DNA of 64,000 nt from Nitrospira sp. Its GTDB lineage: Bacteria; Nitrospirota; Thermodesulfovibrionia; UBA6902. Shown here piece after piece: positions 6,053 through 8,443 of this stretch. Numbering within the stretch: the first letter of the stretch is position 1; each line of letters starts with the position of its first letter. The DNA is taken from contig JADHUV010000009.1 in the NCBI GenBank assembly GCA_016784355.1, positions 8,746-72,745 on the forward strand, in the 5' to 3' direction. The position numbers and the translations under genes are program-made. Below the pieces are notes generated by a model, which was not told the DNA's origin, did no database searches, and saw only the letters and a list, made by a program, of their open reading frames with translations.

Positions 6053-8443
6053 ATGGCAAAAGGCTGTTGTGATACAGGAAGAGATGAAAGAATAAAGCAG
6101 TATAGCTACAGTGAGTGGGAGATCGATGATCCCAATGTCAGGAAGTTCAGTCCTGAAGATATTCTTTTTACTCCTGAACATATTGTCAAACGCAAAAAGG
6201 GCGTGTCACTTCTGATTGATCCGAAGTCGCCTAACTGGATAAGTATGAACCAGACAGGTGCTGAAATTATCAAGCTGTGTGATGGTAAACATACTATTTC
6301 TGAGATTCAGGATGCGATATGCAAGAAATACGCTGTCAGCAATAAAAAGCAGGTAAAGGAAGAGGTCTCTCAGTTTCTCAGTGCTGCCGGACTGCTTGAA
6401 TTTGTCTCAGATATAAAATTTGAAAGACCGGCATACCCCGGCAGAAGCAAGGTAATAGCTCCCAAAAAACTCGATGAGCTGTGGATGTACTACACCATGG
6501 CATGTAACCTCAAGTGTAAGCACTGTCTGGTGGATGCGGGCAAGGTTTTGCGCAAAGAGCTTAGCACCGAGGAGTTTATGAAGGTGGTGGACGAAGGGGT
6601 CAAGCTTGGAGTTAAGAGGTTTTATATAACCGGCGGTGAGCCCTTTATAAAAGAAGGGATCTTTGATCTTATTAAATACATCACAAAAACAAAGAAGCGG
6701 GAGCTTATAGTTCTTACCAATGCGACCCTCTTTGATGATGACAAGATAGCTAAGCTGGCAAAGCTTGCCGGCCCGAGACTTCTACTTCAGGTGAGTCTCG
6801 ATGGGCACACTGCGGCCATGCATGACGAACTTCGCGGCAAGGGAAGTTTTGATAAGGCAGTAGACGGGATTAAAAAGCTGATCAGTATTGGCATAACACC
6901 GATTATCTCTACGGCGATCAGCAAGCTGAATGAAAAGGACATTTCAAAGACTTCCAAGTATCTCTCAGGGCTTGGCATTCAGGAGCACAATGTGCTTTGG
7001 ATGCATACGAAGGGTCGAGGTGCAAGTAATATAAGTGATCTTTATATACCCTCTGATGATGTTGCAAAGGCAATGAAAAGAATCAAGAGTGCTTATAAAG
7101 AGCAGGAGATGATCCTGGATAATGTAGAGTCGCTGAAAGTCAGGGTCAGGACTAAAAGAGGCAGAAAGAATGACCTCTGCAATAACTGTTATGAAAAGGT
7201 ATGCGTTAATTCCGACGGGAATGTATATCCCTGTGCATCTCTGAACGGAGATAAGGCGTTTAATGCCGGCTCAGTCAGGAAGAAATCCCTTGAGGACATA
7301 TGGCTTAATTCAAAGGTCATGGATACGGGCCGTAAACTCAGCGTACAGGATAAGGAGGAATGCAGTAAGTGCTACCTTGAATATTTCTGCGGCGGAGGAT
7401 GTACAGCTCATAGTTACTATGCAAGTGAAGTGGATACGGGCAAGGGTTCTATAACTGCGGTTGACCCTTACTGCTCAACCTATAAATCACTTTTTGATGA
7501 CATTATATGGGAGCTCGCTTCTGAAGGTGTCAGGACGTCTAATGATAAGACGGGATATACTGTTCCCCTTGTATATAATGCGATGGATACAAAGCTTCCC
7601 GGACATTTTGGCAAGGGTCTTAAGAAGATTGATAAAAACTTTGATGTCGGCTGTTATCACTGCTCATGTGTTTTATCTGTTGATGTTGAGGGCGATGATG
7701 AGATCTGTAAGCCCGAGATTAAAGGGAATGTTACAAAGACAGTGAAAAAGAAATTTTCAGATGCTGCTTATAACCCTGTTGCGGATTACTATTGTCCTAC
7801 CGGTTATGATCCTAAAGATCTTGCTCATATACCTAAAGAGGTAATGGATGTATCTTACGGCTGCGGAAATCCTGCTGCCCTTGCGGATATAGGCGAGGCA
7901 GAGACCATTGTCGACCTTGGTGCGGGTGGTGGCATTGACTGCTTTATAGCTGCAAAAAAACTTGGACCAAAAGGCAAGGTCATTGGTATAGATCTGACTG
8001 AGGAAATGGTTGTTCAGGCTAGTAAGAGCGCTAAGAAGGTTGCAAAGGTTCTGGGCTATGATGTAGTGGAGTTCAGAGCCGGAAACATAATGGAGCTGCC
8101 GGTTGAGGATAACTCTGTTGATTTAGTTATATCGAACTGCGTTATAAATCTCACGGAAGACAAGTGGCAGGCACTGAGAGAGATATATCGTATTCTTAAA
8201 CCAGGCGGCAGGTTCTATATTTCTGATATAGTTTCGGATAAGCCGGTTCCTGGATACCTGAAGCGTGATAAAGAACTCTGGAATGCATGTCTTTCAGGGG
8301 CACTTACAGATAAGAATTTCAAGGCAACGGCAGATGATGCCGGCTTTAGCAAGGTAACACTGACAAACGGGTATCTTTATAAAAAGGTTGAATTTATCAA
8401 TTTTTACTCGGTAACATTAAAAGGTATCAAACCTAAAAAGTAA
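6053..8443 (+). CDS. tri-domain fusion: PqqD-like RRE + radical SAM/SPASM maturase-like core + ArsM-type SAM-dependent methyltransferase
   Basis: PqqD-like aa 50-117 (ISMNQTGAEIIKLCDGKHTISEIQDAI...FLSAAGLLE). CX3CX2C at aa 151-158 (CNLKCKHC, nt 6503-6526). SPASM Cys clusters aa 375-450 (CNNCYEKVCVNSDGNVYPC, CSKCYLEYFCGGGC). ArsM-like aa about 565-796 (SYGCGNPAAL, DLGAGGGIDCFIAA, ISNCVINL, ELWNACLSGAL). Confidence 0.8.
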   Translation: MAKGCCDTGRDERIKQYSYSEWEIDDPNVRKFSPEDILFTPEHIVKRKKGVSLLIDPKSPNWISMNQTGAEIIKLCDGKHTISEIQDAICKKYAVSNKKQVKEEVSQFLSAAGLLEFVSDIKFERPAYPGRSKVIAPKKLDELWMYYTMACNLKCKHCLVDAGKVLRKELSTEEFMKVVDEGVKLGVKRFYITGGEPFIKEGIFDLIKYITKTKKRELIVLTNATLFDDDKIAKLAKLAGPRLLLQVSLDGHTAAMHDELRGKGSFDKAVDGIKKLISIGITPIISTAISKLNEKDISKTSKYLSGLGIQEHNVLWMHTKGRGASNISDLYIPSDDVAKAMKRIKSAYKEQEMILDNVESLKVRVRTKRGRKNDLCNNCYEKVCVNSDGNVYPCASLNGDKAFNAGSVRKKSLEDIWLNSKVMDTGRKLSVQDKEECSKCYLEYFCGGGCTAHSYYASEVDTGKGSITAVDPYCSTYKSLFDDIIWELASEGVRTSNDKTGYTVPLVYNAMDTKLPGHFGKGLKKIDKNFDVGCYHCSCVLSVDVEGDDEICKPEIKGNVTKTVKKKFSDAAYNPVADYYCPTGYDPKDLAHIPKEVMDVSYGCGNPAALADIGEAETIVDLGAGGGIDCFIAAKKLGPKGKVIGIDLTEEMVVQASKSAKKVAKVLGYDVVEFRAGNIMELPVEDNSVDLVISNCVINLTEDKWQALREIYRILKPGGRFYISDIVSDKPVPGYLKRDKELWNACLSGALTDKNFKATADDAGFSKVTLTNGYLYKKVEFINFYSVTLKGIKPKK

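Follow-up and report, generated by a model that had tools for sequence, protein, structure and literature searches.

A radical SAM-SPASM protein fused to an ArsM-type methyltransferase in Thermodesulfovibrionia probably builds an organic arsenic compound

To our knowledge, only two routes by which radical SAM enzymes make C-As bonds have been described, ArsS (TIGR04167) for arsenosugars and ArsL (NF040542) for arsinothricin, and each enzyme works beside a separate ArsM methyltransferase. In the latter pathway, the radical SAM enzyme ArsL makes the C-As bond alongside ArsM and contains neither an RRE (RiPP-recognition element) nor a SPASM domain. As reported, As(III) is bound by a terminal cysteine tail (RCCLKC) of ArsL (bioRxiv 10.1101/2024.02.01.577332). 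The maturases SkfB, CteB, SuiB, AlbA, MftC, and PqqE have the order RRE, radical SAM, and SPASM. In this study, we describe a gene whose product has the same order but adds an ArsM-type domain and a conserved cysteine tail. Our search of the literature on ArsM with radical SAM/SPASM proteins, on their fusions, on DUF5714/MbdU, and on TIGR04282/TIGR04283 yielded no account of this fusion.

The analysed DNA is a 64-kb stretch (the window) from Nitrospira sp. of the Thermodesulfovibrionia clade, an anaerobe of the phylum Nitrospirota. From the N- to the C-terminus, the fusion protein comprises a CC tail, a PqqD-like RRE, a radical SAM core, a SPASM domain, a cysteine tail with linker, and an ArsM-like methyltransferase. 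The gene, its parts, and its two neighbors are as follows:

4151-5686, reverse strand: divergent GAF-sigma54 activator-HTH regulator, 511 aa (Pfam GAF, Sigma54_activat, HTH_8)
6053-8443, forward strand: rSAM-ArsM fusion gene, 796 aa (ORF translation, Pfam and NCBIfam domains)
6053-6157, forward strand: N-terminal tail, aa 1-35, with the vicinal pair C5-C6 (MAKGCCDTGR; nt 6065-6070)
6212-6382, forward strand: PqqD-like RRE, aa 54-110 (Pfam PF05402, 46 bits, cut-off 23.4)
6491-6958, forward strand: radical SAM core, aa 147-302 (Pfam PF04055, 85 bits)
7178-7474, forward strand: SPASM domain, aa 376-474 (Pfam PF13186, 37.5 bits)
7649-7708, forward strand: the radical SAM module's cysteine tail, with linker, aa 533-552 (GCYHCSC...C552)
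7745-8443, forward strand: ArsM/AS3MT-type methyltransferase domain, aa 565-796, with the stop codon
8508-9992, forward strand: B12-binding radical SAM enzyme of 494 aa, starting 64 bp after the fusion gene (Pfam B12-binding and Radical_SAM)

When the C-terminal domain was compared with all PDB chains by phmmer, the top five matches were ArsM/AS3MT proteins, with E values of 1.8e-33 to 1.9e-29, well past anything that chance would give, and the first non-arsenic methyltransferase in the same ranking appeared at 4e-12. In these alignments, C604 (nt 7862-7864), C696 (nt 8138-8140), and C746 (nt 8288-8290) coincide with C72, C174, and C224 of CmArsM. Additionally, a profile alignment places C581 (motif YYCPTGY; nt 7793-7795) on C44, which completes the set of four conserved ArsM cysteines. 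A preliminary description of this DNA had assigned the blocks SYGCGNP, VISNCVINL, and ELWNACLSGAL to ArsM cysteine positions, and the alignment bears this out. Its three As(III)-binding cysteines are indeed there, but the total is four, and its residue numbers were correct for ELWNACLSGAL (aa 741-751) but one too high for SYGCGNP (aa 601-607, not 602-608) and VISNCVINL (aa 692-700, not 693-701). The SAM motif DLGAGGGIDCF (aa 621-631, nt 7913-7945) is intact, as stated there. Judged from the alignments, the ArsM/AS3MT-type SAM methyltransferase site of the C-terminal domain is complete, with all four cysteines and the SAM motif.

The family matches agree with this assignment to different degrees. 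Pfam Methyltransf_31 matches the C-terminal domain with 115 bits, and the best NCBIfam family of the fusion is arsenite methyltransferase NF008823 (PRK11873; 240.4 bits, E 2.5e-71, profile positions 38-234 of 272). This score of 240 lies just below the curated cut-off of 263, which may count against an arsenic substrate; the closest solo ArsM-like relatives reach 229-260 bits. Foldseek aligns the domain with ArsM/AS3MT structures at an rmsd of 3.0-3.5 Å over approximately 230 columns with 31-37% identity. In a quick neighbor-joining tree for which the UbiE of the window served as root, the domain falls inside an ArsM-like cluster bracketed by Halobacterium pNRC100 ArsM, CmArsM, and CrArsM, while UbiE occupies a long separate branch; the phylogeny that had been called for thus places the domain apart from UbiE. 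The Halobacterium ArsM, whose gene sits in an arsR-arsM/arsDA cluster, is 40% identical over 92% of the domain length. Based on the alignment and the tree, the earlier suggestion that arsenic or another metalloid is a plausible substrate gains support, and we infer no more than plausibility from them.

The fold, the SAM motif, and the four cysteines are common to the fusion domain and ArsM/AS3MT proteins (CmArsM, 4FR0/4FS8; CrArsM, 5EVJ; human AS3MT, 8XT7; Halobacterium pNRC100). In contrast to these, the domain forms the C-terminal part of a radical SAM protein of 796 aa, lies outside any ars operon, and lacks the ArsM C-terminal domain, since the alignment stops near CmArsM residue 275. Furthermore, the first cysteine site reads YC in the fusion, whereas it reads CC in the closest solo ArsM-like relatives.

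The radical SAM module resembles a peptide maturase. By sequence and fold, the closest solved relatives of aa 40-490 are SkfB, CteB, SuiB, anSME, and PqqE; the RRE alignment to SkfB begins at residue 41, and Foldseek matches the RRE region to SkfB, SuiB, and CteB. The core carries the CX3CX2C motif (aa 151-158, nt 6503-6526), and the SPASM domain carries the seven-cysteine motif within nine cysteines (C376, C379, C384, C394, C437, C440, C446, C450, and C474). The Pfam matches therefore confirm the earlier view of a SPASM/PqqE-like module with an RRE. This resemblance, with SkfB, SuiB, and CteB closest, may be held against an arsenic reading. The protein might instead be a RiPP maturase with a built-in methyltransferase, in which the RRE would bind a leader encoded elsewhere, the rSAM-SPASM part would install a crosslink of the thioether or C-C type, and the peptide would be methylated (e.g., on S or O) by the ArsM-like domain and C-methylated by the B12-binding enzyme, with no metalloid involved. 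We consider this unlikely, although the RRE score, the full SPASM motif, and the solved relatives speak for it, as do the best NCBIfam radical SAM matches of the fusion, which are sactipeptide and other peptide maturases. Against it, the named maturase families all score far below their cut-offs (StsB 164 vs 625, WgkB 138 vs 650, MftC 133 vs 265, and AlbA 106 vs 850 bits).

Membership in the known arsenic families was considered and rejected for the radical SAM module. TIGR04167 is absent from the 25 best NCBIfam matches of the fusion, and the module is 29% identical over only 156 aa (the core) to an ArsS scoring 416 bits, which rules out ArsS. Likewise, neither radical SAM protein of the window is an ArsL: the B12-binding enzyme scores 74 bits against NF040542 (cut-off 450) and has no RCCLKC, and the fusion, which also lacks RCCLKC, has different cysteine tails. 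Moreover, ArsL and ArsM are separate proteins, whereas here the radical SAM module, with its RRE and SPASM domain, is joined to the methyltransferase, which also distinguishes it from ArsS.

We used an AF2 model of the fusion protein for confidence and secondary structure only. Because pLDDT is below 50 for residues 1-29, the N-terminal tail is modeled as flexible; confidence is also low for residues 538-584. Circularly permuted fusions end in the same cysteine motif (..FHCNCALLT*, GFHCA*, VFNCA*), and since it forms their extreme C-terminus, the HCxC tail belongs to the radical SAM module. The CC tail at the N-terminus of the fusion and its HCxC tail recall the As(III)-binding terminal tail of ArsL, and by this analogy we propose the CC tail as a putative As(III)-capture site.

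To describe the conservation of the fusion, we compared its homologues at several distances. More than 120 full-length homologue clusters with 63-80% identity occur in Nitrospirae/Thermodesulfovibrionia. Across 115 full-length homologues, 22 of 25 cysteines are invariant, compared with 23% of all positions; these include C5 and C6, C151, C155, and C158, the nine SPASM cysteines, and C581, C604, C696, and C746. A CC pair lies within the first 10 residues in 114 of the 115. A cysteine-rich C-terminal tail is present in 96 of them and missing from the window protein, and this is a point against the arsenic reading. Among distant fusions, C604, C696, and C746 are retained in 38-39 of 40, C539 is kept in 39 of 40, and C151, C155, and C158 are invariant in 34-40. 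In an alignment of 34 fusions at 26-74% identity (A3), C539, C604, C696, and C746 are all invariant. The cysteine pattern suggests purifying selection. In most distant fusions, the SPASM cysteines are replaced while the ArsM cysteines are kept. The RiPP maturase reading explains neither this loss nor the invariance of the four ArsM cysteines and the vicinal-cysteine tails.

Both modules occur together in 53 of the best 150 representative clusters, and circularly permuted MT-rSAM versions exist beside the rSAM-MT order. Overall, the fusions comprise at least four architectures in Nitrospirota, Desulfobacterota, Elusimicrobiota, Armatimonadota, and other phyla. Type-2 fusions additionally carry a domain similar to DUF5714 or the 'metal-binding double selenoprotein MbdU'. 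As far as sequence can tell, the rSAM-ArsM fusions are a large, unnamed superfamily, and because the fusion recurs in both orders, in at least four architectures, and across phyla, the two modules are likely to cooperate.

Within the clade of the window, the gene neighborhood is constant. The B12-binding radical SAM gene looks co-transcribed with the fusion gene given the 64-bp gap, and it is adjacent to the fusion in every related locus that reaches far enough (9 of 13), as well as in L034. Its homologues form a 60-80% identity spectrum, are unnamed, and are confined to the same taxa as the clade of the fusion; a B12-binding radical SAM protein near the P0241 fusion is not an orthologue, because it is only 27% identical. 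The enzyme ends in ...KKYEGAG, without a cysteine. Its NCBIfam scores are far below the cut-offs of every family, including BchE (204 vs 481) and HpnJ (197). Weaker matches of RiPP type (ApyD, 161 bits; TIGR03975 RiPP C-methyltransferase, 94 bits) fit a maturase, as B12-binding radical SAM C-methyltransferases are common in RiPP tailoring. However, a cis-encoded precursor peptide was not found: among the small ORFs listed in 5600-6200, the 366-bp upstream region, the 64-bp intergene gap, the 77-bp downstream gap, and 11 aligned loci, no precursor-peptide ORF is conserved. A cognate precursor gene is likewise not found nearby, and genes for a protease or an exporter are not conserved near the fusion in the clade loci, which argues against a RiPP maturase.

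The divergent regulator neighbors the fusion in 11 of 13 genome loci and scores 574 bits against NifA TIGR01817 (cut-off 529), and the window contains no nif genes. Sigma54 control by a NifA-like activator found no support: a GG-N10-GC scan between the regulator and the fusion gave no element in the window and nothing consistent in the other loci. In the alignment of this intergenic region from 11 loci, the only shared blocks are a TTGTGA-N17-TATAAT element of sigma70 type and two short AT-rich stretches. A riboswitch or leader RNA was considered and rejected as well: the upstream region contains a terminator-like hairpin at 5918-5934, but a search of Rfam at E<=1 returned nothing.

We scanned the window ORFs of 120 aa or longer for ars genes and detected no arsenic-related gene, in agreement with the earlier statement that arsR, arsC, and arsB are not nearby. 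The flanks of 13 genome loci of the clade yielded none either, a point that may speak against arsenic. More distant relatives present a different picture. TIGR04282 and/or TIGR04283, named 'arsenosugar biosynthesis glycosyltransferase' from comparative genomics rather than assays, score above curated cut-offs beside the fusions P0266 (L019) and P0253 (L026) and that of L032. Similarly, they stand beside a stand-alone homologue of the radical SAM module (P0252, L022) and the closest solo ArsM-like protein (P0137, L014). A PHO4/PitA-type permease adjoins the fusions in L020, L031, L032, and L033; arsenate is a known substrate of such phosphate permeases. DedA is present in the fusion loci L026, L032, and L038, and an ArsC-like LMW phosphatase in L032; L018, L027, and L028 have an ArsP_1 permease two genes downstream of the fusion. 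This set of accessory genes also surrounds genuine arsM-arsS clusters in L041 (ArsS 416 bits, cut-off 300), L042, L055, L093, and L095; TIGR04282, TIGR04283, the PHO4/PitA-type permease, and DedA are thus common to ArsS clusters and the relatives of the fusion. The accessory-gene link is seen only in relatives with 26-47% identity, not in the window's clade, and approximately half of the distant-relative loci contain none of these genes. In contrast to the ArsS pathway, the window's clade has a B12-binding radical SAM partner instead of local accessory genes. In many genomes, the fusion family occupies the place of ArsS among the arsenosugar accessory genes, which a RiPP maturase leaves unexplained. 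The analogy to organoarsenical biosynthesis drawn in the preliminary description is strengthened accordingly, as relatives in three architectures adjoin accessory genes of canonical arsM-arsS clusters.

Instead of arsenic, the ArsM-like domain might methylate a different soft metalloid or a chalcogen (Sb, Se, Te, or Bi), or a small thiol or selenol, with the radical SAM part acting on the same species. ArsM/AS3MT-type enzymes accept other metalloids, DedA neighbors recur, the type-2 fusions carry the DUF5714/MbdU-like domain, and the uncharacterized selenoprotein fusions NF041536, NF041537, and NF047649 of the ArsM-like family each score 150-165 bits against the window protein. We nevertheless regard such a substrate as improbable: arsenosugar-type transferases that also flank ArsS, ArsP_1, and the PHO4/PitA-type permease together with an ArsC-like reductase lie near relatives, and it is for As(III) that this arrangement of four cysteines was defined.

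Solo ArsM-like proteins with 40-47% identity adjoin ArsR in 11 loci and ArsD/ArsA in two, as would suit an ordinary detoxifying arsenite methyltransferase with a non-cooperating radical SAM half. The closest of them (P0137, P0182, and P0153) lie outside ars operons; their neighbors are DedA, TIGR04283, or ECF sigma factors. Alternatively, a NirJ/AhbD-like rSAM-SPASM module and a BchE-like B12-binding radical SAM protein with a methyltransferase could modify a tetrapyrrole or another cofactor, in line with NirJ2 (150), AhbD (134), and BchE among the top NCBIfam matches of the two radical SAM proteins. Taken as one, detoxification or cofactor modification is very improbable. The cut-offs for NirJ2 and AhbD are 500 each, far above the scores, as for BchE, and the immediate neighborhood of the fusion holds no tetrapyrrole genes, so the tetrapyrrole role was rejected; no ars detoxification genes are near the fusion, the recurrence of the fusion speaks for cooperation, and the invariant C539 of the radical SAM tail co-varies with the fusion.

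Based on these comparisons, we favor, with a probability of roughly 0.55, a bifunctional enzyme whose substrate would be a trivalent metalloid bound to thiols, As(III) being the most probable, and which would form an organoarsenical, with the RRE-rSAM-SPASM module standing in for ArsS. Because an ArsM site is joined to a radical SAM module and relatives lie among arsenosugar-pathway genes, the task of the fusion probably goes beyond arsenic detoxification to the making of an organic arsenic compound; we infer both the substrate and the radical step. The flexible vicinal-cysteine tails would capture As(III) and hand it to the four ArsM cysteines for methylation with SAM. The reactive trivalent methylarsenical would then move inside one polypeptide to the radical SAM site, where a 5'-deoxyadenosyl or substrate-derived carbon radical might add to arsenic and create a further C-As bond. 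This is the task of ArsS in arsenosugar synthesis, where an ArsM-type methyltransferase is likewise paired with a radical SAM enzyme, and the module would therefore be a non-orthologous stand-in for ArsS. In the Thermodesulfovibrionia clade, the B12-binding partner probably elaborates the product further, e.g., by methylation. Weakest in the proposal is the role of the PqqD-like domain, which may hold the carrier of the arsenic, either a peptide or a thiol.

It is also conceivable, but quite unlikely, that the RRE guides the rSAM-SPASM module to form a C-As bond, either on a carrier (peptide or thiol), yielding an arsenic-containing RiPP-like product, or on a small molecule elaborated by the B12-binding enzyme, while the same polypeptide methylates arsenic. 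If the clade made such a new class of organoarsenical, anaerobic sulfate reducers would own an arsenic natural-product pathway unrelated to ArsS/ArsL chemistry.

In an aquifer study, arsM was widespread and Thermodesulfovibrionia dominated the well with the highest arsenic, yet no methylated arsenic was detected (bioRxiv 10.1101/2024.10.03.616553). If the favored reading of an organoarsenical-forming fusion holds, metagenomic arsM matches would need rereading, as HMM surveys would score fusion genes as simple arsenic methylators. The fusion would also offer a self-contained enzyme with two active sites for studying the channelling of toxic trivalent methylarsenicals, and anaerobes would have a third enzymatic way of making organoarsenicals.

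Window positions 7745–8443, where the preliminary description placed an ArsM-like domain retaining three As(III)-binding cysteines, correspond to the final 232 codons and the stop codon of an open reading frame at 6053–8443 on the forward strand, which encodes a fusion protein of 796 amino acids. Based on Pfam and NCBIfam, a complete module of recognition element (RRE), radical SAM and SPASM precedes the methyltransferase domain:

aa 54–110, (+), PqqD-like recognition element, 46 bits
aa 147–302, (+), radical SAM core with CX3CX2C at 151–158, 85 bits
from aa 376, (+), SPASM domain
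aa 575–776, (+), class I methyltransferase domain, top family NF008823, 240.4 bits, E 2.5e-71

NF008823, the arsenite methyltransferase family of NCBIfam, is the best family of this last domain by a wide margin. The score stays below the curated cut-off of 263 bits because only profile positions 38–234 of 272 are covered. All four motifs quoted previously are present, with ELWNACLSGAL at 741–751 and DLGAGGGIDCF at 621–631, while the numbering was one too high for SYGCGNP (601–607) and VISNCVINL (692–700). The RRE and the SPASM domain also suit the main rival reading, in which the protein is a RiPP maturase carrying a tailoring methyltransferase, as do SkfB, CteB and SuiB, the closest solved relatives; in contrast, no precursor ORF, protease or exporter is conserved nearby.

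In a phmmer search of the methyltransferase domain against every PDB chain, five ArsM/AS3MT sequences rank first (E 1.8e-33 to 1.9e-29), the top matches being Chlamydomonas ArsM (5EVJ), Cyanidioschyzon ArsM, or CmArsM (4FR0/4KW7/5EG5), and human AS3MT (8XT7). The first non-arsenic methyltransferase follows at E 4e-12. By count along the printed phmmer alignment, C604, C696, and C746 pair with C72, C174, and C224 of CmArsM. Additionally, a profile of the domain and 23 stand-alone relatives aligns to CmArsM residues 20–345 and places the second cysteine of the relatives' LCCPTxY motif on C44; the window protein reads YYCPTGY at this site, with C581 as the equivalent. Collectively, the two alignments place all four conserved ArsM cysteines in the domain, one beyond the earlier count, and the ArsM-type site is intact. 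In a quick neighbour-joining tree without bootstrap, which gives coarse placement only and was rooted on the UbiE of the window (26079–26792), the domain nests in an ArsM-like cluster that the enzymes of Halobacterium, Cyanidioschyzon, and Chlamydomonas bracket; UbiE forms a long separate branch. Both the alignment to characterized ArsM and the phylogeny that had been proposed as checks thus bear out the original assignment. The AlphaFold2 model of the fusion (pLDDT 70.9, pTM 0.64) superposes on ArsM/AS3MT structures with an rmsd of 3.0–3.5 Å over ~230 columns at 31–37% identity.

The ArsM of Halobacterium plasmid pNRC100, encoded directly behind arsR and beside arsD/arsA, is 40% identical to the domain across 92% of the domain length. 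Similarly, solo ArsM-like genes with 40–47% identity adjoin arsR in 11 loci and arsD/arsA in 2, so the divergence of the domain is normal among genes of classical ars contexts. Two small 'halo-CC-star' proteins (HcsL and HcsS) are encoded between arsA and arsR-arsM on pNRC100 (locus L030, 3729–4276), and look like a further arsenic-associated case of terminal Cys-Cys motifs. The closest Nitrospinota solo ArsM-like genes (L029, 5095–6978; L017, 5067–6975) come after those of an ECF sigma factor and of a putative small anti-sigma protein (89–99 aa), all on one strand, which suggests stress-responsive rather than ArsR control.

More than 120 homologue clusters match the full-length fusion at 63–80% identity, and all named ones are Nitrospirae/Thermodesulfovibrionia MAGs. 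They are annotated as 'methyltransferase domain-containing protein' or 'PqqD family peptide modification chaperone', with one cluster named 'Arsenite methyltransferase'. Across a 115-member full-length alignment, 22 of 25 cysteines are invariant, compared with 23% of positions overall. These are the four ArsM cysteines, three of the radical SAM core, nine of the SPASM domain, C76 of the PqqD-like domain, and the conserved extra cysteines of the tails and linker, namely C537, C539, and C552 and the vicinal C5-C6 in the N-terminal MAKGCC. Moreover, C630, inside the SAM motif, is kept in 114 homologues, and a Cys-rich C-terminal tail such as GCGCSCG is found in 96/115; the window protein is among 17 that lack it. 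In the AlphaFold2 model, pLDDT falls below 50 in the N-terminal tail (1–29) and the linker (538–584), and likewise in the C696 loop (697–702) and the C746 loop (732–751). These low values are compatible with mobile, ligand-dependent elements, although they prove nothing.

A full HMMER scan over 1.84 billion cluster representatives shows that the window fusion is not a one-off, as 53 of the best 150 representatives combine an ArsM-like domain with a radical SAM core. The fusions fall into four types:

type 1, the type of the window: RRE-rSAM-SPASM-[HCxC]-methyltransferase; outgroups 41–45% identical, for example a Deltaproteobacteria MAG
type 2: order as in type 1, SPASM cysteines replaced; tail motif HSNCVLS
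type 3, circularly permuted: typical bacterial ArsM (SCC...GCG...SNC...CIGGA) first, then RRE-rSAM-SPASM; ends in ...FHCNCALLT*, GFHCA* or VFNCA*
type 4: AS3MT-like or other ArsM domain with a different, Rv1681-like radical SAM core

Type-2 fusions, whose sources include Desulfobulbaceae, Armatimonadota, and Elusimicrobiota, often add an ArsM C-terminal domain and DUF5714 and reach up to ~1080 aa. The C-terminal DUF5714, carried by P0251, P0266, P0269, and P0275 (e.g., L019, 3407–6646; L024, 8001–11192), matches the NCBIfam 'metal-binding double selenoprotein MbdU' at 143–159 bits, below the cut-off of 600, and is a putative further metal/metalloid-binding module. Type-3 examples (P0253, P0256, and P0258; L026, 7001–9136) finish with the HCxC/HCA motif, which has an internal position in the window protein. 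[quoted passage not shown]

Among 40 diverse fusions, C604, C696, and C746 are retained in 38–39 and the tail C539 in 39, and the site equivalent to C44 is occupied by Cys in 13 fusions and by Asn in 26. Another alignment, of 34 fusions with 26–74% identity, has C151, C155, C158, C539, C604, C696, and C746 as invariant columns. For a RiPP maturase, the loss of SPASM cysteines in distant fusions that keep the ArsM cysteines is an unfavorable sign. Furthermore, solo and fusion sequences interleave in the tree and both domain orders exist, which points to repeated fusion or fission of the modules. This recurrence argues for functional coupling of the radical SAM and methyltransferase modules, and there is little support for a fusion by coincidence or for a tetrapyrrole role.

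Arsenic-linked accessory genes surround relatives of the fusion. The NCBIfam 'arsenosugar biosynthesis glycosyltransferase' families TIGR04282 (cut-off 134) and TIGR04283 (cut-off 182) are fused beside the type-2 fusion P0266 in L019 (223 and 248, respectively). TIGR04282 also lies beside a metagenomic fusion in L032 (188) and, in L022 (203), beside P0252, a stand-alone radical SAM module homologue 47% identical to window protein residues 42–543. TIGR04283 lies beside the permuted fusion P0253 in L026 (269), which closes a same-strand run of DedA, flippase-like (TIGR00374), C_GCAxxG_C_C, unknown, and TIGR04283 genes. In L014, the closest solo ArsM-like relative (P0137, 54% identical) is followed by DedA and then TIGR04283 (271). 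PHO4/PitA-type permease genes lie just before or near four fusions:

L020, 5881–6987: PHO4/PitA-type permease
L031, 6–443: PHO4/PitA-type permease
L032, 13951–15159: PHO4/PitA-type permease
L033, 11087–11518: PHO4/PitA-type permease

Additionally, DedA occurs near fusions in L026, L032, and L038, an LMW-phosphatase ArsC-like gene (92 bits, below cut-off) in L032, and, in the L018/L027/L028 group, an ArsP_1-family permease two genes 3' of the fusion. The MbdU-like domain and the DedA neighbours hint mildly at another metalloid, or at a role related to selenium or tellurium; however, the set of PHO4, ArsC-like, ArsP, and arsenosugar-transferase genes points to arsenic. Such arsenic-type neighbourhoods also speak against a RiPP maturase.

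Canonical clusters of solo ArsM-like and ArsS genes from the same metagenome sample contain TIGR04282/3 (L041, L093), PHO4 (L042, L055, L095), and DedA (L093). The recurrence of PHO4/PitA beside both fusions and canonical arsM-arsS pairs suggests dedicated arsenate/phosphate uptake for these pathways. L041 encodes a bona fide ArsS (TIGR04167, 416 bits versus a cut-off of 300), which shares 29% identity with the window radical SAM module over 156 core residues only. Judged by sequence, the module is not ArsS, yet it occupies the place of ArsS in many genomes. At least one accessory gene is present in 9 or 10 of the 18 distinct fusion-module loci outside the clade of the window, many accessory-negative loci among these being contigs of a few kb. 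None was detected in the window or in 13 loci of its clade. For this clade, the basis of the proposed arsenic link is homology and the evidence from relatives, not its own gene neighbourhood. Consistent with the earlier observation on ars genes, a Pfam search of ORFs of at least 120 aa in the 64-kb window found no arsR, arsB/acr3, arsC, arsA/D, arsP, arsH or glycosyltransferase-2.

In the window, the fusion gene lies between two genes:

4151–5686, (−), GAF-sigma54-HTH activator, divergent, preceding the fusion gene; NifA score 574 bits versus a cut-off of 529
8508–9992, B12-binding radical SAM gene, 64 bp after the fusion gene (Pfam/NCBIfam)

This trio is kept in 13 related genome loci wherever the contig suffices, with variable flanks, and the divergent position of the activator is conserved in 11 of the 13. 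Despite the above-cut-off NifA score, the 64-kb window contains no nif genes. The intergenic region facing the fusion operon has no −24/−12 (GG-N10-GC) element that would connect the activator to the operon. In related loci, the regulator-fusion intergenic regions carry a sigma70-like TTGTGA-N17-TATAAT. Sigma54-type activators, 44% identical over the AAA+ core, also occur near two distant fusions (L037, L039). A terminator-like GC hairpin with a T-run lies at 5918–5934 (+), ~120 nt 5' of the fusion start codon, and is preceded by a weak promoter-like site (5856–5885). No Rfam family matches the fusion leader, hairpin included, and the hairpin could be an attenuator or chance. In L009 (CP070788.1, 8001–9965), a complete Nitrospiraceae MAG chromosome and the only complete genome among the loci, the fusion homologue matches the query only to ~residue 656 and no B12-radical SAM match follows; the short match may come from a frameshift or an assembly problem, or may mark a pseudogene.

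Peptidoglycan-recycling-type genes surround the operon (653–4121 and 10070–11449), encoding an AmiA-like amidase, an MFS permease, a GH3 NagZ-like hexosaminidase, and a MurC/Mpl-like ligase, which at 291 bits falls short of the MurC cut-off (335). The GH3 and MFS genes recur around the trio in several related loci at variable distance. Elsewhere, 17564–25898 (−) holds a complete BatA-D/MoxR-type 'aerotolerance' operon, comprising MoxR AAA_3, DUF58, an unassigned ORF, two VWA proteins (one with a BatA N-terminus), TPR, BatD, and TPR-SH3. The gene at 13567–15975 (−) encodes a multihaem cytochrome c of 802 aa with fused HEAT and TPR repeats, and that at 57469–58041 (−) a 190-aa cytochrome c554-like protein. 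Tandem, very large hybrid sensor kinases of 1322 and 803 aa lie at 29108–35548 (−), the larger with two receiver domains, many PAS domains, HisKA, and HATPase; a response-regulator-HD-GYP-like gene (28013–29107) is downstream.

The partnership of ArsM with a radical SAM enzyme is already known from ArsS and ArsL. The new element is a fused, RRE/SPASM-type version bearing its own cysteine tails; no description of an ArsM-radical SAM/SPASM fusion was found in the literature searched, and no NCBIfam model (June 2026) reaches its cut-off on the fusion. The earlier proposal that arsenic or another metalloid is a plausible substrate is now supported by stronger, independent comparative evidence, from which we infer the substrate and the radical step. 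In the proposed mechanism, the flexible vicinal-cysteine tails would catch As(III), the four-cysteine site would methylate it, and the trivalent methylarsenical would be handed over internally to the radical SAM site, where a carbon radical would add to arsenic, as the 5'-deoxyadenosyl radical does in ArsS. Delivery of As(III) to a radical SAM site by a terminal cysteine tail has a precedent in ArsL, whose RCCLKC tail is needed for C-As bond formation, not for SAM cleavage (bioRxiv 10.1101/2024.02.01.577332). The PqqD-like domain, which this model does not explain, may have a peptide or thiol carrier, or the tail of the enzyme itself, as its ligand. In the clade of the window, the product is probably modified further by the B12-radical SAM partner, on which all named families score far below their cut-offs. 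By reasoning rather than evidence, the fusion would suit the channelling of a toxic, reactive intermediate, and the benefit would be greatest in anoxic habitats, where methylarsenite is not oxidized away.
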